This document shows positions 9,836 through 48,438 of a DNA stretch of 64,000 bases, in pieces (position 1 is the first letter of the stretch; each line of letters begins with the position of its first letter). The notes beneath the pieces were generated by a model. It was not told the origin of the DNA and ran no database searches. It worked only from the letters and a program-made list of their open reading frames with translations. A program made the translations under genes and the position numbers. Source of the DNA: a virus; the UHGV virus genome UHGV-1550212. One strand, 5' to 3'.

Positions 9836-11740
9836 CTACAAAGATTTGAACAATTCCTCGTATGTTACAATTTTCTTGCCTTTTGCAAGTGCTGCTTTCA
9901 TTTTGTTCGACAGCTTGTTGACATCATTTGTGACAACATAGTCACATGCATCAATGTTTGCACCGACATCTTCAAGCTTACCATTTGCTGCATCAATAAA
10001 TGCGCCTTTTGTAGCCCAAGTAGGCTTAGGCGAGCCCGTCATGACAACTTTGATTGCTGCATCATTTGTAGACGTCTCTTTATGCATTTCATTAAACATT
10101 ACGAAGCATTGCGGAAAATGCTTGAGCAATCTTTGTATGACATTCAGCTTTATGAGCTTGTCAATTGGCTCCATGCTCAAGCCCTTAAAGTCATACTGAC
10201 AATTGCTGAAGTATGCAGATAACTGATACGCTGCTTTGCTGCCAAGACCAGGAATCTGCATGCATTCAATGAAATGCGATAAGTAAATGCTACTGAAGCG
10301 TTCACGTAAGCCTGCAATGACTGTACGGTCATTTTTGCTGTTTGTGTCAAACTGCAGCAGCTCAAACAGTCGTTCATTGTCAACTTCTTGCACAATGCAG
10401 AACAAGTCTTCAATTGTGGGCGCATCAGAGAATGTCAACATGACATCAAGATTGTCTTGTGCAATAAGCAAAGCCTCGCAAATTTTCGTAGCATAAACCC
10501 AACCAAGCCCATCGATGTTAAGCTTGCAAACGCCTTTGATAAACCTCGTGCATCTTGCAAATTCCTCAGGCATCATCAAGTGAATGCCATCGACATATGC
10601 ATGTACAGGAATGTCAGCTTTGCTGATATCACCAGGTTCAATACATTCTTGAATGTCTGGAATAATGTCGCCGCCCTTTTCAATACGAACAAGAGCGCCA
10701 GGCCAAATGTCATTTGCATGCAAAAAGCCATAGTGAAATGCTGAAGCTGCTTTTACTGTAGTGCCATCAAGCTCAACAGGCTCAAGTTCAACTCTCGGAA
10801 AAAGCTCACCATTGATTCGCTGACGCCAATCAATTCTAGTCACTCGAGTTACAGCAGACATTGCATCAAGCTTCAATGCAACCATGTTTGCGTATTCTGC
10901 TGCATTTGCAAACTGCTGCTCAATCCACAAGTCATCTGCAAAAGGCTTGACTACAATGCCATCAATGCGATATTTGAATTCTGGGCGTTCATTAGCAATT
11001 TTTGTGCAAGTTTCTGCAAACTCATTGTAATCAGTGACTTCAAAGACTTCTGCAATGAATTCTGCAGGCCAGCCAACTTTAGCAAGAGCATCTGCAGGAT
11101 TGGTTTGCTCATATGTTTTGCCATCAAGTGTGTCAGTCAACATGTATGCCATAGGGTCAATGTCTTCCATGCCACACATATCTAATGACTTCACAAATGC
11201 CGCAGCAGTATTACGCTCATTTTTGTATTTAACTGAGCCATCAGAGTTGAAGTGATACTTTTGTGCAAAAATGTCTTTTGCAATGACAGCTTCAAAGCGA
11301 ATCTGATATGGCTGTTCTGCTGCAGCAAGCTGCATCGGCACTTTGCCTGCTACAACAAATTTGCGCGTGACATCATAGCCCGTATAGCCATCACCACGAG
11401 TAACAACTTTTAGCAATCTGCCATCAGTGTCGTAATGTGCTTCACAGCCCATGCCGTCATACTTGTGCATAAGTAACATTTTATAACCAACAATGTTGCA
11501 CACAATATCATGCAATGTGGTTGTAAACTGTGACTTTGTGTGAATTGCAGCAAGACTTAATGCAGGTGTAAGATGCTTAACTTCTTGCTTGTTTGACTCT
11601 TCAAAACGAATCTTATGTTTAATGTCATCATTTGCAAGAAGCTGCTGTTCAAGAGCATCAAATGCATCATCAGACATTATCGGATTGCCCGCATAATATG
11701 CAGCTATAGCGTCATGGTACGTATTGAGCATGTCAGTCAT
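9836..11740 (-). CDS. ligA: NAD-dependent DNA ligase (LigA-like)
   Basis: Adenylation motif KYDGMGCEAHYDTDGRLLKVVTRGDGYTGYDVT (KxDG ... TRGDG); N-terminal Ia-like YYAGNPIMSDDAFDALEQQLL; 634 aa. Confidence 0.8.
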   Translation of the reverse strand: MTDMLNTYHDAIAAYYAGNPIMSDDAFDALEQQLLANDDIKHKIRFEESNKQEVKHLTPALSLAAIHTKSQFTTTLHDIVCNIVGYKMLLMHKYDGMGCEAHYDTDGRLLKVVTRGDGYTGYDVTRKFVVAGKVPMQLAAAEQPYQIRFEAVIAKDIFAQKYHFNSDGSVKYKNERNTAAAFVKSLDMCGMEDIDPMAYMLTDTLDGKTYEQTNPADALAKVGWPAEFIAEVFEVTDYNEFAETCTKIANERPEFKYRIDGIVVKPFADDLWIEQQFANAAEYANMVALKLDAMSAVTRVTRIDWRQRINGELFPRVELEPVELDGTTVKAASAFHYGFLHANDIWPGALVRIEKGGDIIPDIQECIEPGDISKADIPVHAYVDGIHLMMPEEFARCTRFIKGVCKLNIDGLGWVYATKICEALLIAQDNLDVMLTFSDAPTIEDLFCIVQEVDNERLFELLQFDTNSKNDRTVIAGLRERFSSIYLSHFIECMQIPGLGSKAAYQLSAYFSNCQYDFKGLSMEPIDKLIKLNVIQRLLKHFPQCFVMFNEMHKETSTNDAAIKVVMTGSPKPTWATKGAFIDAANGKLEDVGANIDACDYVVTNDVNKLSNKMKAALAKGKKIVTYEELFKSL

Positions 11741-11972
11741 CGTCTTCTTCTGTTAAATCATTTTCTTCTACCAATGTGTCGGTTGTGTCAATATCTGGAA
11801 ATTCGTAGTTGTTAGGTCGTTTTACGCTAATGTCATGCAAATGCTTCATAAGTTTATCACGAGTCATAAAGAACGTGTTATTATTATCATTTGCATACAT
11901 TAAGGGTTTTGCTGTAGATTCATATGTAGTTGCCGTGCATACATACAACGGCGAGCCATTCAGTGTTGGCAT
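11733..11972 (-). CDS. Hypothetical small protein with acidic C-terminus
   Basis: 79-aa ORF ending LTEEDDD; overlaps the ligase start by 8 nt. Confidence 0.4.
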   Translation of the reverse strand: MPTLNGSPLYVCTATTYESTAKPLMYANDNNNTFFMTRDKLMKHLHDISVKRPNNYEFPDIDTTDTLVEENDLTEEDDD

Positions 11973-11973
11973 T

Positions 11974-12417
11974 TCATTGCAATTGTTTTTGATACGCTAT
12001 CAATTCATTAAGCAATTCATCTGCATGACATTGAACAAGCAGTTGCCACGTTTTTGAATCAATGCCCTCAGTTTGCATATACAAGTCTACTACTCGTTTG
12101 TCAAACTTGTTTATTGCATCTACAGTAGCATTACTTGCAGGTTTGTCAACTTTCTTACCGCTGATAAAAGACCATTTTGGCTGTCTTGCATTACCAAGTT
12201 CTCTATGATAAGCATTCATAACTTGTGTCATGTCCATACCGAGTTTGTTGAATGCTTGAGCAATCTGCGGAAAGGCTATGGCAACATTGCGATTTGTCAT
12301 GAATGCATTGTCTGCTTTTTGTTTTGCAGTCAACTTATCATAATCGCTATCACGAACATACAATAGCTCCTTGAATTTGAAGAAGTCTACTTTTTGTGTG
12401 ATGAATTGTTCTGCCAT
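11974..12417 (-). CDS. Hypothetical protein (147 aa)
   Basis: ORF with promoter-like motif 12442-12470 immediately upstream. Confidence 0.5.
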   Translation of the reverse strand: MAEQFITQKVDFFKFKELLYVRDSDYDKLTAKQKADNAFMTNRNVAIAFPQIAQAFNKLGMDMTQVMNAYHRELGNARQPKWSFISGKKVDKPASNATVDAINKFDKRVVDLYMQTEGIDSKTWQLLVQCHADELLNELIAYQKQLQ

Positions 12418-12441
12418 TGAAGTTTATTGTTATATAGTGAT

Positions 12442-12470
12442 ATAGTACAACAAAAATCTCAAATTTGCAC
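12442..12470 (-). promoter_or_regulatory. Promoter-like motif (sense GTGCAAATTTGAGATTTTTGTTGTACTAT)
   Basis: Recurrent intergenic motif ~24 nt upstream of the start at 12417. Confidence 0.45.
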
Positions 12471-12471
12471 A

Positions 12472-12996
12472 CTATGATGGCTTTTTGTCATCAAATTTGA
12501 AAATGACTGGCATTGCAGAATCAGGCTTTATGTCGCCTTTGCTAACTGCGTCATTTAAGCATTCTACAATCTTTTTGCCAAAGTCTTTTACTTCTGCAGG
12601 AATTTTCTCATATGGCACATTTGATGACAATTGGGGCTCGTTTTGTTGATGCTCATTTTGTTGAAGCTCTGCTGTTTCAGATAGCTGCTTGTCAATTCGA
12701 GTACACATCAATTCATCACGTGCATCAATAAATTCTTGAATTGCTTGCAGCTGCTCAATGCTGCATATGACAACACATTGCAATAAGTTTGATGCATCAT
12801 AGAATGACATGCCAACAATTCGTGTAGTGTCATAATCGAATGCACATGAAGATTGCGCATAATCGATGTCTTTCAATGTATCCATAAACGACATTGATAA
12901 GTCTTCAATACCTGATACATCTGCAATGCTGAACACAAATTGTGTGCTGCCAACGCATTCATGCTTATCTGAAAATATGAGCTTATCTACTGTCAT
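12472..12996 (-). CDS. Hypothetical protein (174 aa)
   Basis: ORF; no confident motif. Confidence 0.5.
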   Translation of the reverse strand: MTVDKLIFSDKHECVGSTQFVFSIADVSGIEDLSMSFMDTLKDIDYAQSSCAFDYDTTRIVGMSFYDASNLLQCVVICSIEQLQAIQEFIDARDELMCTRIDKQLSETAELQQNEHQQNEPQLSSNVPYEKIPAEVKDFGKKIVECLNDAVSKGDIKPDSAMPVIFKFDDKKPS

Positions 12997-13208
12997 TTCG
13001 TAGTTACTTTTGTGATGATGCCCTTTGCAAGCATCTTTTTGTATGTGTCATAGCCGATAATGTCAATTGTTGTGTCGTTTACTCGCCGAACAATCAACTC
13101 TGCTTTATCTGCAGCAGACATGATGTTATCTGCAGCTTCTTTGTTTGCAGTGATAGCAGACCACTTACCATTACCGAGCTTAGTTATGTTTGCTTTGATT
13201 GATGTCAT
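12993..13208 (-). CDS. Hypothetical small protein (71 aa)
   Basis: ORF with 4-nt overlap to the downstream gene. Confidence 0.4.
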   Translation of the reverse strand: MTSIKANITKLGNGKWSAITANKEAADNIMSAADKAELIVRRVNDTTIDIIGYDTYKKMLAKGIITKVTTK

Positions 13209-13213
13209 TGTTG

Positions 13214-14557
13214 TCAGAATTGAAACATGTTGTTGATAAACGTATCGCCAAACTGCGCATCTGCAGCTTTTGACGTTATGTCATACGTTGCTGCATTGAT
13301 GCCGAGTGCAGTTATTGTTGATTGCGCATCTACAAGTTCATACACTTTGCAGCTTGGCTTTGTAATGTCTGTAAACGACATTGTGTACATGAAGTTTTCA
13401 AAGATATGTCTTGGTACTTCACGTGCATTCAAACATGCAAGTTGTCTATTTTCTGCAAATCGCGCCTTGAGCCATTCAAAGTCATCTGCAGGTACTGAGT
13501 CAACATTCATGAATGTCTTATATGCTGCAGTCAAAAACATTGCAATGACTTCGTCATCATACAAATCTTCACCAAGCATATATCGCATGCCAGGTTCCAA
13601 CTGTTTTGCATTGTCAGTTTCAATACCAAGAGACTTCAATGCATCGTAGATTTGGCCTACAGATAAATGCGACCAATTGTTGCCACGTTTCTTGAGCTTG
13701 CCAAACAATTCTGGGATGTTGTCACCAGCATCACCAAGCACAATCTTGTAAAACAAGAAACTTGGCACATGTTCATGAATCTCTGCATCAACATACTCAA
13801 GCAATGCTGCATATGGGTTGTCAAGAATGCGTGTTTTAACTTGAGCACCAGCAAAGCTGTCGAAGATGCTGCCGCCGACATTCTGCGACTTTTCACCAGC
13901 AAGTTCTTTGATGTGTTCAAGCACAAACTTGTCGCCCATCAGTACTCGAGACTTCTGCCACCCATTTGCTTTGCAGCCATTTTTGATGATTGCATATGCT
14001 GAACATGCGCCAGTGTATGTGTCAACACAAACACATTGAGTCAAGTCTTTGTCAGTGCCTTGATACAACACATTGCGGCCTTTTGACGTTGCATATCTGC
14101 TAAGCATGAAGATGACATCATCAGCTTCTGCTTCAGAAAGCTTAATGTGACGAATGCCATGCACTTCTTGCATCAACTTCAACCAGTCAAAGTATACACC
14201 ATAAACTTTGAGCCAGTTGATTGTCTGGTCATATGTTCGAGTGCCTTTGTAACCAGCATCTTCACCTTGTTCAAAGCCCTCTCTTGTCAAGTATTGATGC
14301 TTTGAGCGCCACAAATTCGACTTTTTGTCATCGACCGCAATGATGACATCATCAACAACATCTTCAAGTCTACGAAGCTCATTACAAAGGTCGAGCGTTA
14401 ACTTGGATATCAAAGACAGTCTTGATGCATTCTCATTCTTTTCGAATGACAAGTCTGTGCCTGATTTTGCTAATACTGGCACTCTGCTCTTCAACCACCA
14501 GCTTCCATCAATTACGTAGATGAACTTGTGATTATGAGTATTGTCAAGCTTTGTCAT
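13214..14557 (-). CDS. 5'-3' exonuclease / flap endonuclease (T4 RNase H-like)
   Basis: FIYVIDGSWW near N-terminus; SEAEADDVIFMLSRY ... GTDKDLTQC resembles T4 RNase H EADDHIAVL ... DGDFTQL; helix-hairpin-helix-like GDAGDNIP. Confidence 0.65.
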   Translation of the reverse strand: MTKLDNTHNHKFIYVIDGSWWLKSRVPVLAKSGTDLSFEKNENASRLSLISKLTLDLCNELRRLEDVVDDVIIAVDDKKSNLWRSKHQYLTREGFEQGEDAGYKGTRTYDQTINWLKVYGVYFDWLKLMQEVHGIRHIKLSEAEADDVIFMLSRYATSKGRNVLYQGTDKDLTQCVCVDTYTGACSAYAIIKNGCKANGWQKSRVLMGDKFVLEHIKELAGEKSQNVGGSIFDSFAGAQVKTRILDNPYAALLEYVDAEIHEHVPSFLFYKIVLGDAGDNIPELFGKLKKRGNNWSHLSVGQIYDALKSLGIETDNAKQLEPGMRYMLGEDLYDDEVIAMFLTAAYKTFMNVDSVPADDFEWLKARFAENRQLACLNAREVPRHIFENFMYTMSFTDITKPSCKVYELVDAQSTITALGINAATYDITSKAADAQFGDTFINNMFQF

Positions 14558-18110: not shown

Positions 18111-21100
18111 TCAAAAGCTTCGATTCATCAGTTCATCAGCAAGTCGTTCAAGTTCAGTAGCAGCTTTTTGTCGCTTGGCTTCTCTTTCTGCTTCAACATC
18201 TGCTTTGCTTACTGGCGATTCCAAGTCTTTTGCAGGTGCATCTTCAATAACAGTCAAATTGCTGTCATCAAACTTGTTGTCAATGTCAACTCGTTTGAAT
18301 GATATGATGCCTGATGACACCTGAGCTTCTGCTTGTTGTTTGTCAAATACAAGGCTGCTAATTGTTGATTGCAGTTTTGTAGATGCCAGCAATCGTTCTG
18401 TGTTATCTGCAAAAATGTCATCAGTAAACAATACATGCAGCATTTGAGCAATCGAATCACGACTTCTGCTGCAGCCACTGTCAAATGCAGGCAACTGCTT
18501 AATTGCATAGATGTCGCCATCATGTACAGTAATTGCATTGAACATGCGTCTTGCAATTGATGCCACCGAATCAAGTACATCTGGTGATTGCGGCGTGTAG
18601 CCTCGTGAATCGAAGTATATGAGTGCAGAGTTCTTAACAATTTGGTCGACTACTTCTGATGCAATTGAGACTGCATCTTTGCTGTTATTGAAGACATCAT
18701 TTAGCATATATGACACAATCTTGATGTTCGACTCATGCATTGTGCCACTTGAACCCGCATCAAATATTGACACTGCATCTTTGATTGATTTGAGTCTTGC
18801 AAGTCGATACATGTCTTTGTTGTCAATGACATACATATCGATAGTCTTCATGATGGTGTCAAACAAGTAATGATGCGATAGTGTTCGCAATGCATGTCGC
18901 CAATCATCAAACACTCGTCTGTCTTCTACAAGATATGTAAGCTTGCCATTTTTCTTGACAAGTTCAAATCTGTCTGATTCTTGAACTTGCTCTGCTGGCA
19001 AATTCATGATAACTTCGAATGTAGCCTGATTGACAAATGATGCAAACATTTTGCCAATCTTGCTGTTCTTTTCTTGACGGTACTCTGCTCGAGCTTCTTT
19101 TGCAGCATTGAGAACTTGAGCAATCATCATGTCATCTGCAACAACATCTTGCACGACTTTGCATTCATAGCCATACGATGACAATGTGTTCTGAATGATG
19201 ACAAGCTGAGTAGCCCATTGTCGCCATTTCTGCTCAAACATATTGAGCTTATACGCAGTCAAGTGAATCTTGATTTCACCTGTGTACGGGTCACGATAAA
19301 AGTACGGTGCATTGAATGCCCATTCAAAGAAATCAAAGAGACTTCTTGAGTCATTGCGCTTTGTCTGCATTTGCAAAATGTCCCAGAATGACAGCTTTTC
19401 AACATTTGTTAATGTCAAGTCAAGCTCGTCATATGCAGTAATGTTTCGTGGGTCGCCATTTGATTTTGTCATACTGAAATACACATATGACTGAATGGAT
19501 ATTTTGCGAAGCCGTGAGTTAAATTGTTCGATTTCTTGACCTGTAAATGCCTCGTCATAAATGACATCAAATTCATAGCTGTCATTGATATCAATGCCAA
19601 CTGACAAGTAATTTGTGCAGAACAGCAGTTCAATATCACCAATTGTGCCAGATTCATTGATTGATTGAACAAAGTCATGCATTGCATTGTCACGCTTGTA
19701 GTACTTGACTTTTGGATTTCTGCCAAGCATCATTCGAACTGCGCCTACAATTGCATGAGTAAATGCGTCGCCTTTGTTTGTTGGGAACAGAATTCGTTTG
19801 CCTGCTTTAATTGCTGTTGAGATATGTGATGCAAGTTTTGTAATCTTGTCGCCGTCATGTTTGCAGCAGACAAATCTGACACCTTTGTTGTAATTAAGCG
19901 GCTTGTCGCAGAATATGACAGTGTCAAAATGACAGAACATGTGTTCAGCTACAGGTGTGCCTGTCATCAAAATGACTTTTGTCTGCAACTTTGTTAAGTT
20001 GTCAATCACATTTGCAGGTACAACATCACGATATGCAGACATTGTCAACAAGTGCGATTCGTCGACGACAACATAGTCATATAAAATTGACACTTCCTCT
20101 GGGTCAGCTAATGTAAATTTATCGAATGTCAAAGCTACATTGACATGCTTAGACAATTCAAGACCTCGTTGACCAAATGAGCAATACATGCCAAGGTCTG
20201 ACATCTCAATCTTTGATTGCAAGATTGATGTGTATGGTTCAATCAGCATGACTCGTTTTCCATCACGAGTAAGCTGCTTGATAAATTCTGTCTTGCCTGA
20301 GCCTGGCCGTGCAATCAAGTAATTGATGCCAGTTACAAATACTTCTTCAAGTTCATGCTTGTATGTTGACAAGTACTCATTTTCTGCAAGTTTGAAGACA
20401 TGCGTATGTCGAAGTTCAAAGTCTTTTTGCTGTGCAACTTTCGACATAATGTACTGACTGATTGCATCTTCTGTATTGTGTTCAGCAATCAGTTCATTGA
20501 CAGTTACAGATGACTTGTTAGCAAACTTGAATTTGAAGCCGTGCTTTTCACGAAGTTCTTTGACAGATGACCATACGCACGGACAAGTGCCTGCTGCATT
20601 ACGTTCAACTGCAGACCTGAATGAGTTTGCCCAGCTGTTATGCTCTGCATTGAACTTTGGATTACCCGAACACATTTGCAAGAACATTTGCAACACATGT
20701 TCATATTGACCACCTGTAGTTGACTTCAAATCATATAGCCATGCAAGTGTATAGGCCAAGCGATATCTACCAGTGTTGTCGTAGTTTTGTGGAGTGATTG
20801 TGAGCATTGTGCCCTCTTCAATCATTGTGATGTCATCACGTTGAGTGAAGACTTGCTCGCCGTCAGTCATTGCAGTCATATGAGACTTCGGCGCATAATC
20901 AAAACGACCTCGAAGTCTATCAAACATTGTCTTCAGTTTGTCGATGCAAAATTTTGCATCAACTGAAGCATAGATGCTAACATCAAACTCTGGTTGCTCA
21001 ATGAATTGCGCGTTTTGATTGATGATGACATCTTTATCACGTGCAACAAACAACGGCTGACTAATTTTGCAAACAGATGCATCAACTACTCGAGATTCAG

Positions 21101-21710
21101 ACATTTGACCTGACTTTTCAAGTCGTCTTGACAATGTATTGTTGACAGGATGCACTTCTCGAGCCATGTCATGATTGCCCTCTGATTCAAGCTGGTCACT
21201 CAGCAACACAAGGCATTTCCAAATGACATACAATTTTGCCTCATATGCATCAAGATATGCTTTCTTTGCTGCAGAAGCATTTTCAGATGACACAAATACA
21301 GCATCTTCAGTTTGAATTGACAGAGGCTTTGAGATTGTGTAGACGTGCAAGCCTGAACCAGAAGTCGACTTAAGCACAGCAACACACCACGGATATTTGC
21401 AAAGCATTGCAGCCAAACGTGGTTTGATGACTTCTACAAGTTCTTTTGAGTGAAAGTCCAAATCGACTGGCTGCAGACCTGACCAAGTCAAGTAGTCATG
21501 AACTTGTTGTTTTGGTCGAGCAAACATTGTCGATTGCGACACAAAGGGACGATGTGCTTTATCTACTGTGTCAAGTGACTCATCATTTGCAACTTTCATG
21601 ATGAGGTCATACAATGAAATTTGTTGCTTATTGACAGTGTCTTCTGTTTTACGAACACTGTCGCCCATCATGAACTTTATGCCACTGAGCAAATCTTTGA
21701 CGTTTGACAT
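18111..21710 (-). CDS. Primase-helicase: N-terminal archaeo-eukaryotic-primase-like domain fused to an SF2-type helicase
   Basis: N-terminus VDLDFH (DxD) and STSGSGLHVYT (sGxGxH) fit primase motifs I/II. Helicase motifs ARPGSGKTEF (I), VVVDESH (II), LMTGTP (III), QFNSRLRK (VI). 1199 aa. Confidence 0.55.
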   Translation of the reverse strand: MSNVKDLLSGIKFMMGDSVRKTEDTVNKQQISLYDLIMKVANDESLDTVDKAHRPFVSQSTMFARPKQQVHDYLTWSGLQPVDLDFHSKELVEVIKPRLAAMLCKYPWCVAVLKSTSGSGLHVYTISKPLSIQTEDAVFVSSENASAAKKAYLDAYEAKLYVIWKCLVLLSDQLESEGNHDMAREVHPVNNTLSRRLEKSGQMSESRVVDASVCKISQPLFVARDKDVIINQNAQFIEQPEFDVSIYASVDAKFCIDKLKTMFDRLRGRFDYAPKSHMTAMTDGEQVFTQRDDITMIEEGTMLTITPQNYDNTGRYRLAYTLAWLYDLKSTTGGQYEHVLQMFLQMCSGNPKFNAEHNSWANSFRSAVERNAAGTCPCVWSSVKELREKHGFKFKFANKSSVTVNELIAEHNTEDAISQYIMSKVAQQKDFELRHTHVFKLAENEYLSTYKHELEEVFVTGINYLIARPGSGKTEFIKQLTRDGKRVMLIEPYTSILQSKIEMSDLGMYCSFGQRGLELSKHVNVALTFDKFTLADPEEVSILYDYVVVDESHLLTMSAYRDVVPANVIDNLTKLQTKVILMTGTPVAEHMFCHFDTVIFCDKPLNYNKGVRFVCCKHDGDKITKLASHISTAIKAGKRILFPTNKGDAFTHAIVGAVRMMLGRNPKVKYYKRDNAMHDFVQSINESGTIGDIELLFCTNYLSVGIDINDSYEFDVIYDEAFTGQEIEQFNSRLRKISIQSYVYFSMTKSNGDPRNITAYDELDLTLTNVEKLSFWDILQMQTKRNDSRSLFDFFEWAFNAPYFYRDPYTGEIKIHLTAYKLNMFEQKWRQWATQLVIIQNTLSSYGYECKVVQDVVADDMMIAQVLNAAKEARAEYRQEKNSKIGKMFASFVNQATFEVIMNLPAEQVQESDRFELVKKNGKLTYLVEDRRVFDDWRHALRTLSHHYLFDTIMKTIDMYVIDNKDMYRLARLKSIKDAVSIFDAGSSGTMHESNIKIVSYMLNDVFNNSKDAVSIASEVVDQIVKNSALIYFDSRGYTPQSPDVLDSVASIARRMFNAITVHDGDIYAIKQLPAFDSGCSRSRDSIAQMLHVLFTDDIFADNTERLLASTKLQSTISSLVFDKQQAEAQVSSGIISFKRVDIDNKFDDSNLTVIEDAPAKDLESPVSKADVEAEREAKRQKAATELERLADELMNRSF

Positions 21711-38385: not shown

Positions 38386-38430
38386 GCAAAAAGAAAGCCG
38401 AACTGAATTTCAGTTCGGCTTTCTTTTTGC
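38386..38430. terminator. Perfect 21-bp-stem hairpin with flanking A/T runs; bidirectional terminator between convergent genes
   Basis: gcaaaaagaaagccgaactga / att / tcagttcggctttctttttgc. Confidence 0.7.
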
Positions 38431-38446
38431 ATACGCTTATGCTATG

Positions 38447-41400
38447 TTAGAACAGAGCAATGATGTTGTCGACAAACATAAAGCATGCATGCAGCAATTC
38501 AGCTGTCGGCATCATCTCATATGCTTTGCCATCATACATGAATCGCACAGTGACAATGGGTGACACTTCATCTTTGAATGCAAGCACAGGAACATCTACA
38601 CCTGCAGTCAATTGCACTTCAACATCCTTGTCAGCTGCTACATCTTTAGCAATCACTGTAATATCTCGACAACGACCAGCAGCTACTGCATATCTAACAT
38701 TTGTCAATGTAGCAGACATGTCAGCAAGAGCTTGCATGATTTGTTGCTGAGTAAATTGCTCAACTGACTTCTTTGCAGCCTTGACAGCTTCGATATCTTG
38801 TGTGTTTGCAAGAATCAATGCTACCACTGCAGGGTCAGAAGTAGTCCACCAACGACCATCAATTGCAAGCCACAGTCGATTGCCATTGACGTCAATTGCA
38901 TATGCATATTGAGTGTTTGGCGCCAATGCGACTTTTCGAGTGTTCTTTAAGAACTCTGCCGCATCAGGAGCCGCAACAATGTTCTTGACAAATGACGGCA
39001 GCATTTCAGCTTCAAATGTTTGTGTAGCTTCAAAGACACCGCCATGTGCATCGTCATCAATTCTGCCTGCAAAGCGTTTGCAGATTTGAATGATTGTAGC
39101 CATGCCTACCGTTGAAACGACTTGACGTTTCATTGCAGGCATTTGCAGAGGCATTGTATCTTGCGCAATGTACAATGATGTCGTATTAATAGTGTCAAGT
39201 ACTCGTGCAATGTCTGCAGTATCAACAATTACAAACCAGTCGCCGTCATGGCAGACAATAAGTTGCTTGCTGTCATTTGCATATGTCAGCAATACTGCAA
39301 TGTCATTTTTGATTGAGATTGCAGGAATCCATGCTTGTTGCAGAGGTAAGTCAAGATTTGGTGTGCCGCATGGATAAAGCGCAGATGGCTGCATAATTGA
39401 GCGGCAATCAAAACCTATTGAACTTACAAGCTGCAGAACTTCGCCACGAATGCAAGCATTACTTTGATTCTGTGTCATGTCATATGCAAGCCAACTGCAA
39501 ATTGCTTTGATTGATGACACTGGAAATGCTACGCCAATTGTGCTGTATGCAATCTTGCCGTCTGCTGACAATGACTCATCAACTGCAATGCCAGCATCAT
39601 TGAACAATGACATATCAATTGAACAATGGAATTCGCCACCAGGCATTGGACCTGCAGCAATGCCATAGCCAGGACCAAGTGACAGCCATTCTTTCATTGC
39701 ATCTGAATTGTATGACGAGAACTTGTACAACACGTATGACTTATGCGGGTCACTAACTGACTTGCGAATCTCCATCTTGGCGCCTGCTTTCTTTGCAATT
39801 GCTTTAATGTTATCGGCGTGCTTCTTTGCCTCAGACTTATCAAATTTGCCTTCATCAAGTTGAGCAATCTTGCCAAGCGCATAAGCAGTCCATGCAATTG
39901 ACAATTGATTCAGCGCGCCAACTTCTGACCACGACTTTTCTGCAAACCATGAGCCAAGACCAGATTTGTCAAGAGTTTCTTTGCGTTCAGCTTTTGTTGC
40001 AGCATCCCACCACTTGCCTGTTGCAGGCAACACAACGTCTTTGATTTGCTCCTTGCGAAGCTCATTGACACCGATTTTGCCCTCATGAACATGCGCATTT
40101 GCATGATATGCTCTAAGAGCAGCCAATGCAGCATCATATGAGTCATAGTCTTGCGGCCAGAATTCCCCATTCTTGCCAATGATGCCCCATACGCCCTTTG
40201 ACTTTTCTTGTATGACAGAATCTTTGTCACCGGCAGCTTCATTGACAAATGCTGTGTTAAGATACGCAATGACATGCTGAAGCTCTTTGTCATCTGCAGA
40301 CTCATTGACATTCTTAGCGTAATCACCAAGAATTGATTCAACTTTGCCACGCAAATTGCTTGGCATATCATCAAGGTCAAGATTGCCATACTTCGTGACT
40401 TCTGGTTGAGACAATCCAAGCAATTTCAACACCTTATCACGGTACTTGTTTGCGAGCTTCTTCCAAATCCAGCGGAATGTTACAGCGCCAATCAGAAATT
40501 TGATGAGGCCCTCATCAAGTACATGCTGTTCACGCAAATATGACGTAATGCATGAACGTTGACCATCAGTCAAGTCAACCCACATTTTATCAAGCAATAT
40601 TGAATCTGGGTTGCTTGCAATGCCAGCACCACTGCGGTTGTACACATTCATTCTGTCAATTGCTGGTGTTGCGTCATTGTCCCACCAAGCTTGTGCATAT
40701 GAACATCCAGCAGGATTTGAGATTGCCTCATTAATGTACATGACATTGAAGATTTCGCAAAGACGCTTGCGGCATTCATGTGACATAACTTGCCATTGTT
40801 CGGCAATTTTGTCTTCTGACCACTGCAGCAACATGTCTGCAAATTCTTTACCTGCGCATTGCTCAACTACACCATGTTTTGAACGCCAATAATTGTCAGG
40901 CTCAATCTGCGCAATTGCATGAACAAATGAAGTCAGATTGTATGACGCAGATTCGCAAATGCAATGCTGTTCAATGTAGCTACGAACAGCAAGTGCAGTG
41001 TCTTCCGGCAAGTTGCTATATGGTGACTCATAGATGTTTGCTTGCTGATTGAGCATATGTGGAGCAACTTCTGCAATGATTTGCTTGCGAACATTCAATG
41101 GCCATGCATTCCATGAAGATTCTACAGATTCATCAAGATGCATGCCAATTGCATCCATAACTGCATCAGCATCTTTGCCCAACAGTTCGTCAAACAATTT
41201 GTCTACTACTGCAGTGTCATATCGCAAATTTGGCTGAGCTTTTGCAAGAGCATTCATCATTGCTTTGCGTTCTTGTTTTGACGCATTGTTCCATGTGCCA
41301 GCATACAATTCTGCTGTCGCGCTTTCACAGACAATATCTGCAGCAGCATATGCTTGCTTCATAATGTCCATGAAGATTGACTTCATTTTTGGATGCATCA

Positions 41401-41653
41401 CATGATACTTTTCATTGTAGATGTCAAGTACGCCATAAACATCTTTCAATGGTCGAATGCTTTCTGATGAGCCGAATGATGGCTTCAAAATTGAATTGCA
41501 TACACGTTCAACGGTGCCACGCATAAACTTGACATCACTTCGCTTGTCACTGATAGACATAAATGCATCAATGACAGACTTGATGGTGTCATCTGCAGCT
41601 TCATTAACAAAGCCTACTGGTCGACCGCCAAACTTGTTTGTTTGTGTTGTCAT
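38447..41653 (-). CDS. Large hypothetical protein (1068 aa)
   Basis: Uninterrupted ORF; no catalytic motif recognised by eye. Confidence 0.6.
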   Translation of the reverse strand: MTTQTNKFGGRPVGFVNEAADDTIKSVIDAFMSISDKRSDVKFMRGTVERVCNSILKPSFGSSESIRPLKDVYGVLDIYNEKYHVMHPKMKSIFMDIMKQAYAAADIVCESATAELYAGTWNNASKQERKAMMNALAKAQPNLRYDTAVVDKLFDELLGKDADAVMDAIGMHLDESVESSWNAWPLNVRKQIIAEVAPHMLNQQANIYESPYSNLPEDTALAVRSYIEQHCICESASYNLTSFVHAIAQIEPDNYWRSKHGVVEQCAGKEFADMLLQWSEDKIAEQWQVMSHECRKRLCEIFNVMYINEAISNPAGCSYAQAWWDNDATPAIDRMNVYNRSGAGIASNPDSILLDKMWVDLTDGQRSCITSYLREQHVLDEGLIKFLIGAVTFRWIWKKLANKYRDKVLKLLGLSQPEVTKYGNLDLDDMPSNLRGKVESILGDYAKNVNESADDKELQHVIAYLNTAFVNEAAGDKDSVIQEKSKGVWGIIGKNGEFWPQDYDSYDAALAALRAYHANAHVHEGKIGVNELRKEQIKDVVLPATGKWWDAATKAERKETLDKSGLGSWFAEKSWSEVGALNQLSIAWTAYALGKIAQLDEGKFDKSEAKKHADNIKAIAKKAGAKMEIRKSVSDPHKSYVLYKFSSYNSDAMKEWLSLGPGYGIAAGPMPGGEFHCSIDMSLFNDAGIAVDESLSADGKIAYSTIGVAFPVSSIKAICSWLAYDMTQNQSNACIRGEVLQLVSSIGFDCRSIMQPSALYPCGTPNLDLPLQQAWIPAISIKNDIAVLLTYANDSKQLIVCHDGDWFVIVDTADIARVLDTINTTSLYIAQDTMPLQMPAMKRQVVSTVGMATIIQICKRFAGRIDDDAHGGVFEATQTFEAEMLPSFVKNIVAAPDAAEFLKNTRKVALAPNTQYAYAIDVNGNRLWLAIDGRWWTTSDPAVVALILANTQDIEAVKAAKKSVEQFTQQQIMQALADMSATLTNVRYAVAAGRCRDITVIAKDVAADKDVEVQLTAGVDVPVLAFKDEVSPIVTVRFMYDGKAYEMMPTAELLHACFMFVDNIIALF

Positions 41654-41766: not shown

Positions 41767-44700
41767 TCAATTACATGCTGAATGTCCGCAGTTGGTGCAT
41801 CGAACACAGCCATCAAACTTGACCATGTCACCGCCGCATTCAGGACACTTTGCATACATCTTTGAGCCATCTTGAATATGCAGTTTCAATGCGCGCCCAA
41901 TTGCTTTGCAGAATGTTCCGACAGATGCAAAGCTTTTTGCAGTTTGGTCGACAATTTCGCCAAGGTCAATGCCATTGCGAAGCATCGTTGAGTACAGTCG
42001 AGTAATTGTTTGCTGCTCGTCTGAACCAAGACGTTCTGAGATATTATCATAGTGCTGCAAGAATGACAAATTATCACCAAGCTTGTAGTGCTTCTTATCA
42101 GTCTTTGTGATTGTCGTTTGTTCAATGCCTTGCAACTTGTCGAATTCATCTTTGTCAAGTTCAAATGCAAAGATTTCATAAGGTCGACCGTCATCACAGC
42201 CTACAAGAATACACCACTTGCGCTTATACACTGACACGCAATACACTGCAGCAGGCAATACTGGTTTTCGTTTTGAGCGATGACCAGATTGCAAGATGTG
42301 CGACTTGTCTTTTGACTGCTTGTCATCTTTTACGAGAACACCTGCACGTGAGCCATCTCGATAAATTGTGCAGCCTTTGCAGCCAGATTTCCATGCAGTC
42401 AGATAAATTTCACGAACAAGCTCTTTTGTTGCAGAGTTTGGAATGTTGACCGTTACAGAAATTGACGAGTCAATGTATTTTTGCAATGCACCTTGCAATT
42501 TCACCTTGCCAATCCAGTCAACATCTTCAGTAGTTGCCTTGTAGTATGGTGATTGAATAAGCAATTCATCAATGACTGCTTGCGGAGCATTTGACAACCA
42601 AGCTTTGATGCGAGACATTTCTGCTTCTGACCATTCAATGCCAGTATCTTTGACAAGAGTAAATTTGCCATCGCCAAGCTGCACTCGTTTACAAATCCAC
42701 TGCATCAACGGATAATGAACTACAGCGTATTCAATGAACTTGTCACCAGTAGTCTCATCAATGAAGTTGATGTCGGCCTCATTATCAACTGCAGTTGGCT
42801 TACGACGACGTTTATGTAGTGGCATAAATACGGGCTCAATACCAGACGTTGTCTGAGTCATCAAAGCTGTAGTGCCTGTTGGTGCAATTGTGGTCGTGTT
42901 AATGTTTCGACGGCCAAATTGCTGATAAGTTTTGATGTGCTCATCATCAATCAGTTCAGATAGCATACGCTGGATGAACTTTGATTGCACATCTGTGTCA
43001 TAGTCAAATATTGCAAATGAGCCACGAATCTTTGCCAAGTCAATTGACGCTTCATAAGTCGCCTTTACAAGCCATTGTTGCATAGTGACTGCGAAGTCAA
43101 TTGACTCCTGCGAGCCATAACGCAAGCCAAGCATCGCCATTGCATCGCCAAGCGCAAGGAAGCCCATGCCATATCGACGAGTGTTTGTCAGTTTATCATA
43201 AACTTTGTGCCACAAGTCAAGTTCAGTCTTTTTGATGTCAAAGTCTTCTTTATCTGACCGAACCTTTGCAATGATTCGTTGCACTGCTTCAATTTCAAGC
43301 TGCACAAGGTCATCCATGATGACTGCACAGTCATATGTATCTTTGTAGAATGTCTCAAAGTCAAATGATGCATCAGCAGTCCAAGGATTAAGCACATATG
43401 CAGTCAAATTGCGATGCGACAAAATGCAGCTTGCATATGCAGCGAGAGGCTGTTCACCGCAATTTAGTGTATTGACTACTTGCTTGTCATTGACAGCAAT
43501 AAAGAAATTGTGGAAGTCTTCTACTGTGCCATTGTACACATCTGCTTTGTTCATGTGACGTGTTGCAACGACTTTGACAATTGCATCACCAGTAGTGTCA
43601 ATGTCTGCATATTTGCTGCAGTCACCTAACGCTGCGCAAGCATCACAGCAATATGCTTGTTCACGATTGTCATAAGAAACTTCGAATTCTTTACCACAGC
43701 ACTCGCATTGTTTGATAACTGTGTTTCGTTCTGTTTTTACAAGCTCGTCAGTCTTCAATGCAATTGATAGCTTATCTGCGCTTGGCATATCAATTGCCCA
43801 CAATGAGTCATTTGTTGCAAGGTCAATTGCATTCTTGAAATCGCCATTAGCAAGCCTGAACTCATGATTTGCTGTGCAATTGATGACATGGCCGTCATCA
43901 AGCACAATTTGAATGATTTGCGCATTATGTGCAGTCAATCTGGGTCGACGCATTGTGCGCACAACGAGCTTGCCATTAGAGTCAAGACAATATACTGGAA
44001 TGTCTTCACCACTATCAGCAAGCTCTTTGAATGTCTTCAAACCTGAGCCATCAGCAACAAGTACTTTTGTGTCACCTGTGAAGCATGGATTTGTTGAGCG
44101 CTCTTCATACATTTTGCCATATGCTTTCGAGTTCGACTCTTCCATGATACGGTCCCAGAAGAACACGCCGGGTTCTGCAGATGCCCATACGTTATCAACA
44201 ATTTTGTCAAACAATGCTTTTGCATCTGATGTCTTATGCAGCTCTTGGCCATTAGAGCCACGCCAAACATGCTCAAACTGTTGTTCTGCAAGCACTGCAC
44301 GCATAAATGCATCAGTAAGCTTGATTGAAATGTTTGCGCCTGTGATTTTCGTCAAGTCCTTTTTTGCATCAATGAACTTATCTGCGTCAGGATGCTCAAT
44401 TGACAATGACAACATCAATGCGCCACGCCTGCCATTTTGTGCAACTTCTTTTGTTGATGTTGAAAAACGTTCCATAAATGACACTACACCAGAAGTTGTA
44501 ATAGCACTGTTATGCACTTCTACGTCTTCTGGACGAATGTGCGACAAATCATGACCAACGCCACCACGACGCTTCATCAACTGAACTTGCTCTTCATCTG
44601 TTTTGAAGATGCCGCCATATGAATCTGCGTCATTGCCAATTACATAGCAATTTGACATTGACGTGTAACCGCCAAGACCAATACCAGCCATTGGAGAACC

Positions 44701-44988
44701 ACCAAGCACAAACCGCTTAAAAGGCTCAAGTAAATATGCAAGTCGTTCTTTTGACAATACACGTTTGCCTGTCTGTTCTTCAAATTGTGATTCGATGCGG
44801 TCAAATTCATTGACCCAGCGCTCATGCATATCAGACAATGAGTGTTCATACAAATTGTCTTTGTCATGATGCAAGTATTTTGACATGCATATGTCAGCAG
44901 CCATTGAATCGCCTGTAAATTCATGCGTCAGTGTAGTGTGCACTTCAGCATATTCAGGCGACCCAATTTGAATGGGATGTTTTGTCAT
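41767..44988 (-). CDS. nrdJ: Ribonucleotide reductase, class II-like (NrdJ-type) catalytic chain, interrupted by an intein
   Basis: RRGALMLSLSIEHPDADKFIDAK signature; catalytic motif split as ...ERSTNP | intein | CGEQPLAAY, giving NPCGEQPL after excision; C-terminal zinc ribbon CPECGG ... CVRCTNCGHSAC. Start at MTKHPIQ (ATG 44988). Confidence 0.75.
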   Translation of the reverse strand: MTKHPIQIGSPEYAEVHTTLTHEFTGDSMAADICMSKYLHHDKDNLYEHSLSDMHERWVNEFDRIESQFEEQTGKRVLSKERLAYLLEPFKRFVLGGSPMAGIGLGGYTSMSNCYVIGNDADSYGGIFKTDEEQVQLMKRRGGVGHDLSHIRPEDVEVHNSAITTSGVVSFMERFSTSTKEVAQNGRRGALMLSLSIEHPDADKFIDAKKDLTKITGANISIKLTDAFMRAVLAEQQFEHVWRGSNGQELHKTSDAKALFDKIVDNVWASAEPGVFFWDRIMEESNSKAYGKMYEERSTNPCFTGDTKVLVADGSGLKTFKELADSGEDIPVYCLDSNGKLVVRTMRRPRLTAHNAQIIQIVLDDGHVINCTANHEFRLANGDFKNAIDLATNDSLWAIDMPSADKLSIALKTDELVKTERNTVIKQCECCGKEFEVSYDNREQAYCCDACAALGDCSKYADIDTTGDAIVKVVATRHMNKADVYNGTVEDFHNFFIAVNDKQVVNTLNCGEQPLAAYASCILSHRNLTAYVLNPWTADASFDFETFYKDTYDCAVIMDDLVQLEIEAVQRIIAKVRSDKEDFDIKKTELDLWHKVYDKLTNTRRYGMGFLALGDAMAMLGLRYGSQESIDFAVTMQQWLVKATYEASIDLAKIRGSFAIFDYDTDVQSKFIQRMLSELIDDEHIKTYQQFGRRNINTTTIAPTGTTALMTQTTSGIEPVFMPLHKRRRKPTAVDNEADINFIDETTGDKFIEYAVVHYPLMQWICKRVQLGDGKFTLVKDTGIEWSEAEMSRIKAWLSNAPQAVIDELLIQSPYYKATTEDVDWIGKVKLQGALQKYIDSSISVTVNIPNSATKELVREIYLTAWKSGCKGCTIYRDGSRAGVLVKDDKQSKDKSHILQSGHRSKRKPVLPAAVYCVSVYKRKWCILVGCDDGRPYEIFAFELDKDEFDKLQGIEQTTITKTDKKHYKLGDNLSFLQHYDNISERLGSDEQQTITRLYSTMLRNGIDLGEIVDQTAKSFASVGTFCKAIGRALKLHIQDGSKMYAKCPECGGDMVKFDGCVRCTNCGHSACN
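43462..44085 (-). mobile_element. Intein (208 aa) inserted at the catalytic Cys of the reductase
   Basis: Starts CFTGDTKVLV (block A), block B TANHEF, block F DVYNGTVEDFHNFFIAV, ends ...VVNTLN followed by Cys +1; middle has a small Cys cluster (CECCGK ... CCDAC ... C), no LAGLIDADG motif seen. Confidence 0.65.
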
Positions 44989-45029
44989 TGTAACAGTGCA
45001 TTTAAGTGTTTTAACTGTTTTATGTATAA

Positions 45030-45057
45030 ATTGTACAACAATGGGCAAAATTTTGCA
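45030..45057 (-). promoter_or_regulatory. Promoter-like motif (sense TGATGCAAAATTTTGCCCATTGTTGTACAAT)
   Basis: About 40 nt upstream of the reductase ATG; its TGCAAA element lies inside the left arm of the hairpin at 45055-45108. Confidence 0.45.
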
Positions 45058-45108
45058 TCAACTCAAAACAGCCAAGCAATTCATTGCTTGGCTGTTTTGA
45101 GTTGATGC
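45055..45108 (-). terminator. Perfect 25-bp-stem hairpin (loop ttca)
   Basis: gcatcaactcaaaacagccaagcaa / ttca / ttgcttggctgttttgagttgatgc. Confidence 0.55.
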
Positions 45109-48294: not shown

Positions 48295-48396
48295 AGGGAT
48301 GGCGAACTGTACACATTGTGCATATTGTACACACTATATATTGTATGTGTTTGTATATGTATTTTAACAGGCATTAGCAAACAATACAAAAACAAC

Positions 48397-48438
48397 AAAT
48401 GAAAGTGGCCCAGATGTATATCTGAGCCACTTTCATTT
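48397..48438 (-). terminator. Hairpin (13-bp stem aaatgaaagtggc / gccactttcattt with inner stem cagat / atctg)
   Basis: Inverted repeat between the nucleotidyltransferase-kinase gene end and the holin start. Confidence 0.5.

Follow-up and report, generated by a model that had tools for sequence, protein, structure and literature searches.

The nrdJ locus and its products

A 64,000-nucleotide stretch of the virus genome UHGV-1550212 (the window) carries on its minus strand a ribonucleotide reductase gene, nrdJ, whose reading frame is interrupted next to the catalytic cysteine by an insert of 208 amino acids (aa) with the features of an intein. The source is an uncultivated T4-like phage of ~175-181 kb with a Gp23-type major capsid protein, a T4-type large terminase, a topoisomerase II subunit and an NAD-dependent DNA ligase. 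A megablast search with the nrdJ gene against 50,697 phage records gave no nucleotide match, and phage NrdJ proteins share no more than 44% identity with its product, so that a cultured relative is lacking.

The window open reading frame (ORF) matches the NCBIfam model TIGR02504 (NrdJ_Z, adenosylcobalamin-dependent ribonucleoside-diphosphate reductase) with 448 bits (cutoff 400) despite the insert being still in place, and Pfam Ribonuc_red_lgC with E=5e-74. Judged from these profile matches, the host protein is a class II reductase NrdJ, with predicted dependence on cobalamin. The mechanical ORF list places the gene at 41767..45048 on the minus strand with a TTG start at 45048, an extension which reaches up to a perfect 25-bp hairpin at 45055-45108. 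Translation probably begins instead at the ATG at 44988 (MTKHPIQ), as in the 98%-identical homologue P0001. Counted from this ATG, the insert comprises residues 302-509 of a 1073-aa precursor, and its excision leaves a reductase of 865 aa and 97.8 kDa. The zinc-ribbon tail at the C-terminus is also found in the intein-free homologues P0030 and P0050 and is therefore the reductase's own and not part of the intein. With a GC content of 41.7% the intein is not conspicuous beside its exteins (42.6% and 43.1%). The antisense ORF that overlaps the start of the intein is argued to be non-coding, as divergence in the minus-strand frame is strongly biased towards synonymous changes. Coordinates are collected in Table 1.

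Table 1. Features of nrdJ and its insert, with the syntenic region of the sister contig L001; residue numbers refer to the intein unless stated otherwise.
Feature	Position	Strand	Details and basis
nrdJ precursor gene, predicted class II (adenosylcobalamin-dependent) ribonucleotide reductase	41767..44988	-	1073 codons plus stop; 120.7 kDa precursor
N-extein, 301 aa, ending ...YEERSTNP	44086..44988	-	translation; aligns to intein-free NrdJ up to the NP of NPCGE
Predicted class 1 mini-intein, 208 aa, 22.9 kDa	43462..44085	-	translation, profile hidden Markov models, PDB matches, AlphaFold2 model, DNA homology break
N-terminal HINT subdomain, aa 1-99, with block A Cys1 and block B	43789..44085	-	TIGR01445, Npu/Ssp DnaE alignment, pLDDT 85-95
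Block B, T71ANH74	43864-43875	-	motif
Insert at the canonical endonuclease position, aa 100-168 (69 aa): low-confidence linker and zinc finger	43582..43788	-	family alignment
FCS-like treble-clef zinc finger core, aa 122-153	43627..43722	-	predicted ligands C127, C130, C146, C150
C-terminal HINT subdomain, aa 169-208	43462..43581	-	PDB matches, family alignment, model
Block F, DVYNGTVEDFHNFF, spanning D182-F195	43501-43542	-	F:4 = Asn185, F:13 = His192
Block G, VVNTLN	43462-43479	-	Leu207, Asn208
C-extein, 564 aa plus stop, beginning with Cys+1 (codon 43459-43461) of the NPCGE finger loop	41767..43461	-	spliced sequence against T. maritima NrdJ
CxxC...CxxC zinc-ribbon tail of the reductase C-terminus (CPECGGDMVKFDGCVRCTNCGHSACN)	41770..41847	-	coordinates checked
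ORF, 213 aa, antisense to nrdJ, overlapping the intein start	43913-44554	+	mechanical ORF list only
Expected ligated junction peptide ...ERSTNPCGEQPL			corresponds to ...STNP-CGEQPL
Intein-less nrdJ target of the type ...ACAAATCCA/TGCGGTGAA...			
L001, region syntenic with window 41767-44988	10001-13987 (L001)		463-aa intein, HNH_3, same zinc-finger type, C-terminal Gln (...VFVNNRQ/CGEQPL)

Position and boundaries of the insert

Translation of the minus strand from 43462 to 44085 yields 208 open codons (CFTGDTKVLV...INCTANHEF...VEDFHNFFIAVNDKQVVNTLN); a plus-strand reading was rejected owing to stop codons throughout. The in-frame insert of 208 codons beginning with Cys that the initial annotation had described within the reductase, without giving a strand, is thus recovered on the minus strand, where its flanks read ...YEERSTNP/C...N/CGEQPLAAY. 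The same annotation had proposed that excision joins ...ERSTNP to CGEQPL and remakes the NPCGE motif. This is borne out by the spliced product, which aligns with Thermotoga maritima NrdJ (PDB 1xje) without a gap across kinSTNPCGEIGL, and by the break in DNA homology described below. The Cys of this stretch is chain position 322 of 1xje, the residue at the finger-loop tip that forms the thiyl radical. As the window Cys+1 aligns to it, the insert lies directly N-terminal of the catalytic cysteine; the site named in the initial annotation stands, with the refinement that the insert precedes the catalytic cysteine, which would double as the +1 nucleophile of splicing.

Among the 120 best NrdJ homologues, 87 have a contiguous (S/T)NPCGE, and in the other 33 NP and CGE are separated, at exactly this point, by an insert of 135-475 aa. 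These inserts are of several types, including that of the window (...NTLN), that of the 463-aa intein of P0002 (...NNRQ), a type ending ...LVHN (P0003, P0072, P0091) and others. The contig which carries P0002, L001 (ena:ERZ27260843:k119_20060, 181 kb), comes from a sister phage that is syntenic with the window and ~95% identical to it on both flanks. Blastn between the two follows the homology from 45108 to 44047, 39 nt into the intein, where it is lost; it restarts at 43461, the first base of the Cys+1 codon, and runs on for 11.7 kb. Since homology resumes exactly at this codon, the junction TLN/C is fixed independently of the protein alignment, and the mobile unit, as delimited by this break, ends exactly there. 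At the protein level the N-terminal HINT subdomain of the window intein is 51% identical to that of P0002 and the remainder is barely alignable. The presence of different inteins at the same bond in near-identical phages points to replacement of one intein allele by another. No signal of a co-conversion tract was found beside the insertion site in the comparison with L001, the number of mismatches per 100 nt being flat near the junction.

Splicing motifs and predicted fold

The NCBIfam model intein_Nterm (TIGR01445) matches residues 1-77 of the insert with 45 bits (cutoff 24.5), and Pfam Intein_splicing matches the isolated insert with E=1.3e-8 and 35.2 bits. When PDB sequences were searched with phmmer, DnaE inteins were the best matches (E=1.6e-5) in two stretches which cover blocks A-B and F, and the NrdJ-1 intein (8ubs) was matched as well. 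An AlphaFold2 model computed from a 25-sequence family alignment (A1) has a mean predicted local distance difference test score (pLDDT) of 81.9 and a predicted template modelling score of 0.71, with pLDDT values of 85-95 over aa 1-100 and 87-91 over aa 171-208. In Foldseek comparisons of this model with PDB structures, the matches had E values near 1e-8, a probability of 1.0 and target-normalised TM scores of 0.7-0.8. The top 50 matches were exclusively inteins or the HINT domains of Hedgehog and BIL proteins; Ssp and Npu DnaE, Ssp DnaB, Mtu RecA, NrdJ-1, Pab PolII and Mxe GyrA are among them. The insert is accordingly modelled with the HINT splicing fold, and matches of this strength in profiles, PDB sequences and fold far exceed what chance would give.

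All the splicing motifs listed in the initial annotation, namely Cys1, TANHEF of block B, VEDFHNFFIAV of block F and an Asn immediately before Cys, are present on the minus strand. Cys1, Asn73 and His74 are invariant in alignment A1, Thr71 is at least 90% conserved, and His192 at F:13 is present and invariant in the family. The insert ends in Asn208 and is followed by Cys+1, in line with the Asn (or Gln/Asp) end and the Cys, Ser or Thr at +1 that mark class 1 inteins. A class 3 intein, which is marked by WCT, the lack of Cys1 and a Cys at F:4, was considered and rejected, since the insert has Cys1 and carries Asn at F:4. Of the 208 residues of the window intein, 10 are Cys. One of them, Cys33 in the motif PVYC(L/F)D (at 44085 minus 3 x 32), is at least 90% conserved across the family in alignment A1.

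A family of inteins at the NP/CGE site

An alignment of the inserts of P0002 and P0004-P0027 relates the window intein to inteins of 310-475 aa, with which it shares the N-terminal HINT half (37-44% identity over the whole intein), the finger pattern CExCGxxF-x7-RE-xx-(F/Y)C(S/C)xxC, the block F sequence DVYNGTV(D/E)xxHNFF and the C-terminal pattern N-x-(L/K/R/M)-(N/Q). A word-indexed homologue search with the intein alone gave P0121 as its single match. The family emerged only when 1.84 billion cluster representatives were searched exhaustively by phmmer with the 208-aa sequence; this returned 2799 proteins at E<=1e-3, 881 of them at E<=1e-10. At least 123 of the best 150 matches have the intein directly after N-P (or N-L), which is the same reductase site.

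For a pooled set, 148 inteins were delimited at NP/C.../C(G/S)E with block F as the anchor. Their C-terminal residue is Asn in 75 and Gln in 73; their penultimate residue is Leu in 63, Lys in 26, Arg in 23 and His in only 4. The modal size is 440-520 aa, with both an HNH domain and a finger (83 members). Of the members without the penultimate His, 22 are no longer than 260 aa, and 17 of these keep the finger and are devoid of HNH; the window copy, together with P0001, is the smallest finger-bearing member seen. The penultimate Leu in place of His was correctly noted in the initial annotation, but as the family consensus it is no peculiarity of the window copy. Because the pooled family shows the same features, the Leu-Asn end, the Cys cluster and the lack of LAGLIDADG are family norms, and the sequence relationships place the window intein in a large, common and site-specific family. 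At a single peptide bond, nature provides a series of full inteins with HNH and finger, several independent deletion intermediates and finger-only minis, with two different intein alleles in phage genomes that are 95% identical; the series illustrates invasion, decay and re-invasion at a site where the host's catalytic Cys is the splicing nucleophile.

P0003, the next-closest relative (a 68% identical NrdJ of 1071 aa), has at the same site a third, unrelated intein type, a 183-aa mini that ends ...GILVHN/CGE with the canonical His-Asn. P0072 and P0091 have inteins of the P0003 type with 292-296 aa and an HNH_3 match, which suggests the same pattern of decay in a second intein family. P0121, the closest word-indexed relative, is a 227-aa fragment on a 1229-bp contig with 35% identity to the mini-intein; its finger is degenerate (CEVSGKEF...REICSENG, two Cys lost) and it ends ...VNQFN. 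Its upstream flank differs (...YVPGC/C), and P0121 may lie at another site or in another host protein.

The zinc finger as a probable endonuclease remnant

The initial annotation described a mini-intein with a Cys cluster in place of LAGLIDADG. This is upheld by the profile searches, as neither Pfam nor NCBIfam gave a LAGLIDADG match in the window intein and no HNH domain (PF13392/PF01844) was matched in it at E<=0.1, nor in its middle segment at E<=10. Full-length relatives, of about 450-500 aa, have an HNH_3 (PF13392) nuclease, with E=1.8e-8 in P0002; the match of P0010 (E=7.8e-5, 22.7 bits) is below the gathering cutoff of 24.8. They also have long helical, DNA-binding-like regions on both sides of a finger. 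By the family alignment, the window copy has the HNH domain and both of these helical regions deleted and the finger kept.

The pattern of the Cys cluster is CxxC-x15-CxxxC, and in an alignment of 70 fingers the four Cys and an Arg-Glu pair are invariant. In individual scans, Pfam zf-FCS was matched by 31 of these 70 fingers (E<=1, best 1e-5), and the fingers of other members match the treble-clef families VATC, YacG, DUF2256 and zf-FLZ. The window finger itself matches zf-FCS weakly (E=0.079, 13.2 bits against a cutoff of 22.4), which is a resemblance and not an established membership. In the AlphaFold2 model the finger forms a β-hairpin (122-137) followed by a helix (148-153) at pLDDT 72-78, an arrangement that fits a treble clef. 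Searching PDB sequences with the finger profile gave marginal matches only, to the N-terminal CxxC segment of an archaeal alanyl-tRNA synthetase (E=0.002) and to C2H2 fingers, and these are uninformative on function.

On this evidence the Cys cluster is best read as the remnant of a homing endonuclease of the HNH and not the LAGLIDADG type, and the surviving part most likely corresponds to the zinc-finger module of that ancestral endonuclease, for which DNA binding can be inferred. The possibility raised in the initial annotation of a degenerate or non-canonical endonuclease remnant is upheld and can be made precise in this way, as an FCS-like finger that the HNH-bearing relatives carry too.

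Sister genomes, selection and inheritance

The same mini-intein occurs in three genomes, which are the window, L003 (the source of P0001) and L004 (an IMG/VR viral contig of 175.6 kb), with nucleotide differences of ~5%. Nei-Gojobori ratios of nonsynonymous to synonymous change (dN/dS) among the three are 0.08-0.12 for the intein and 0.03-0.045 for the exteins, and the synonymous divergence (dS) is 0.14-0.23 in the intein as against 0.20-0.22 in the exteins. Neither the intein nor the exteins have stops or frameshifts in any of them. Cys1, T71, H74, H192, N208, Cys+1 and the four finger Cys are unchanged, while position 207 varies, with Leu replaced by Met in L003. The side chain of residue 207 would therefore not be critical.

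Similar dS in intein and exteins together with low dN/dS indicates vertical co-divergence with nrdJ under purifying selection. As a dead intein in the catalytic loop would inactivate the reductase, such constraint would be unexpected if splicing had been lost, and the intein is probably splicing-competent. A search of IMG/VR with the spliced extein for an intein-free allele within this phage group found none; only L004 matched, and it bears the intein as well. Given that the nuclease is absent, the intein has probably lost its own mobility; it is passed on vertically with the phage.

Proposed mechanism and alternative readings

We regard it as highly probable that the insert is a class 1 mini-intein between the Pro and the thiyl-radical Cys of the NPCGE finger loop in the NrdJ of a T4-like phage, and that it descends, without its nuclease, from the family of HNH and finger inteins. 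A mechanism can be drawn from the established class 1 pathway (PMC4031507). An N-S acyl shift at Cys1 would be aided by Thr71 and His74 of block B. Cys+1, the reductase's own radical Cys, would then attack the thioester, and this trans-thioesterification would give a branched intermediate. Cyclisation of Asn208 would follow, with His192 (F:13) aiding in place of the absent His at G:6, and an S-N shift would ligate ...STNP to CGEQPL, releasing the active enzyme and the free intein at the masses given above. As the intein interrupts the finger loop, the precursor enzyme would be inactive until splicing has occurred. By comparison with the family, the ancestor was a full-length intein with HNH and an FCS-like finger, which lost the nuclease and the flanking helices and retained the finger.

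Several points weigh against this account. The Pfam Intein_splicing score of the isolated segment is 0.6 bits under the gathering cutoff of 35.8. F:4 is Asn185 and not the usual Asp, although Asn is the family consensus, and the penultimate residue G:6 is Leu207 and not His. The region of aa 100-168 is modelled at only moderate confidence (pLDDT 51-78), and zinc binding by the finger is inferred from its motif alone. With regard to mobility, a helper endonuclease acting in trans may still mobilise the intein. The lack of a nuclease domain, the two non-canonical residues and the degenerate finger of P0121, by which decay is seen to happen in the family, could all be taken to mean that the intein is splicing-dead or badly impaired, so that the phage nrdJ is decaying and its reductase is trapped as an inactive precursor. 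More than 140 family members, full-length HNH copies included, have these non-canonical residues as their consensus, and functional inteins without His at G:6 are documented (PMC4031507). Together with the constraint on intein and exteins and the intact frames in three genomes, this leaves a dead intein improbable. That the segment might instead be a native, unremoved domain of a reductase subfamily was the refutation named in the initial annotation, and all four closest relatives (P0001, P0002, P0003 and L004) do have an insert, with no intein-free allele in the phage group. Yet their inserts, which all interrupt one peptide bond, are of three differing types (208, 463 and 183 aa), the 87 homologues with a contiguous motif have none at all, and the segment has the HINT fold with the catalytic residues of an intein and splits the catalytic finger loop; the intein claim stands, and a native domain can be given next to no credence. 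Scarcely more can be granted to a C-terminal junction three residues earlier, ...KQVVN/TLNCGE, with Thr as the +1 nucleophile. Thr is allowed at +1, and the 11 residues from HNF to the Asn of VVN are near the usual spacing of blocks F and G, the distance from HNF to the terminal Asn being 10 residues in Npu DnaE. Such a junction would leave TLN inside the invariant NPCGE loop, whereas the DNA homology to L001 restarts at the Cys codon and not at Thr, the family aligns as ...N-x-(L/K/R)-(N/Q)/CGE with an even longer F-G hairpin, and the Leu/Met variation at 207 fits a residue of the intein and not of the finger loop.

A further alternative concerns the retained finger, which may have a function of its own in the mini-intein and not be a neutral leftover. 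It could be a clamp for HINT folding, a metal or redox switch that conditions maturation of the reductase, or a DNA-binding module for homing by a nuclease supplied in trans. In favour of this, the window copy has lost what flanked the finger on either side but not the finger, which also stays in the 17 of 22 short members without HNH and in other independent deletion variants (P0014, P0016, P0018, P0019, P0020 and P0024), and the four Cys and the Arg-Glu pair of the finger are invariant in the 70 members and in the three sister genomes. Against it, there are finger-less minis at the same site (P0123, P0254, P0270, P0224 and P0158), P0121 has lost two finger Cys, the middle region is the least constrained in two of three pairwise comparisons (dN/dS 0.12-0.38, from very few changes), and persistence may merely mean that the deletions are recent. 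An own function is therefore unlikely. The more specific proposal that selection keeps the finger in endonuclease-less minis at the radical-Cys site, where it would clamp the HINT halves or make splicing dependent on zinc or redox state, is speculative and unlikely; if it were true, the finger would be a natural conditional-splicing module that gates the activation of deoxynucleotide synthesis during infection and not the debris of a homing endonuclease.

With the mini-intein reading preferred, the locus should be annotated as one nrdJ gene with an intein and a mature enzyme of 865 and not 1073 aa, and the segment should not be labelled 'HNH endonuclease', a name that some relatives bear in databases. 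The Leu/Lys/Arg-Asn/Gln ends of the family, half of them with Gln, are natural sequences for studying Asn and Gln cyclisation without the penultimate His. A compact 208-aa intein with Cys1 and Cys+1 and the native flanks NP/CGE could also be a candidate tool for protein engineering.

Other features of the window and of related phages

A search for further inteins in the window by tblastn with four intein queries found none. Three long, perfect intergenic hairpins were observed, which may be terminators or regulatory stems. The one just upstream of nrdJ, already mentioned for its 25-bp stem, has a predicted energy of -45.8 kcal/mol (z=-10.1); another with a 21-bp stem at 38386-38430, downstream of a 1068-aa ORF, has -34.3 kcal/mol (z=-9.0). 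Both are conserved in L001, as read from self-reverse blastn matches. The third lies at 48395-48438. The 1068-aa ORF itself (38447-41653, minus strand) follows nrdJ immediately on its downstream side, and both L001 and L003 conserve it; neither it nor a 1199-aa ORF at 18111-21710 on the minus strand has a Pfam match at E<=1e-3.

In several crAss-like Bacteroides phages (PhiCrAssBcn14-18 and cr108_1), NrdJ is matched in two pieces over ~3.6-3.7 kb, as against ~2.5 kb in relatives, and the annotation gives two reductase genes and another gene. The split probably reflects an intervening element, be it an intein, an intron or a fractured gene.

Relation to known inteins

Inteins in phage reductase genes are known, though few among cultured phages (PMC3653736), and within ribonucleotide reductases the bond directly N-terminal of the thiyl-radical Cys is the one most often occupied by an intein (Dassa et al. 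2009, PMC2677866). Knowledge of HNH-type inteins goes back to Dalgaard et al. 1997, as cited in PMC5050341. Neither a finger-only mini nor the HNH-finger family with Leu-(Asn/Gln) ends was found described in the full-text literature searched, a scope outside which InBase and many subscription papers lie. The window intein adds to the known class of reductase inteins, and its mini form and family are not claimed as undescribed; current understanding is not overturned.

Its unusual residues also have precedents. Functional inteins in which G:6 is not His make up about 5% (PMC4031507), so the penultimate His is assisting and not obligatory; the same review counts F:4 among the less conserved positions. 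Phage inteins retain the penultimate His inconsistently (Kelley et al., PMC5050341), and to judge by the title of reference 87 in PMC4031507 Ssp DnaE apparently lacks it too.

The RIR1 inteins of class I and II reductases (PMC2677866) are, by their description, alike in host family, in the bond that is interrupted and in the use of the catalytic Cys as +1 nucleophile; the window copy differs from them as a 208-aa mini with a zinc finger and a Leu-Asn end in an uncultivated T4-like phage. Other relatives are the bacterial and phage NrdJ inteins with HNH and finger, such as those of P0002 and P0004 (the latter annotated by NCBI as 'HNH endonuclease [Saprospirales bacterium]'). They have the site, the finger, block F and the C-terminal pattern in common with the window copy and are 37-51% identical to it in the N-terminal HINT subdomain, but are of ~400-500 aa with HNH_3 and helical regions that the window copy lacks. 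The Chilo iridescent virus RIR1 intein, compared here by its description in the literature, is also a viral reductase intein with a non-canonical C-terminus; it ends in Gln, as does half of the family, and according to the summary in PMC4031507 of Amitai et al. 2004 it splices efficiently with this native Gln, and better than with Asn. The window copy, on the other hand, ends in Asn. The NrdJ-1 split intein from marine metagenomes (PDB 8ubs) likewise has a class II reductase as its host and matches the window intein in sequence and HINT fold. It is split, being fractured by a free-standing endonuclease gene, its sequence similarity to the window intein is weak (E=0.0066), and it is inserted one residue further C-terminal, after the catalytic Cys (PMC2677866). 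Finally, Npu and Ssp DnaE and other natural minis are class 1 HINT proteins without a nuclease and gave the best PDB matches in sequence and fold, but the DnaE inteins have a different host and site, are split and, unlike the window intein, are without a zinc-finger insert.

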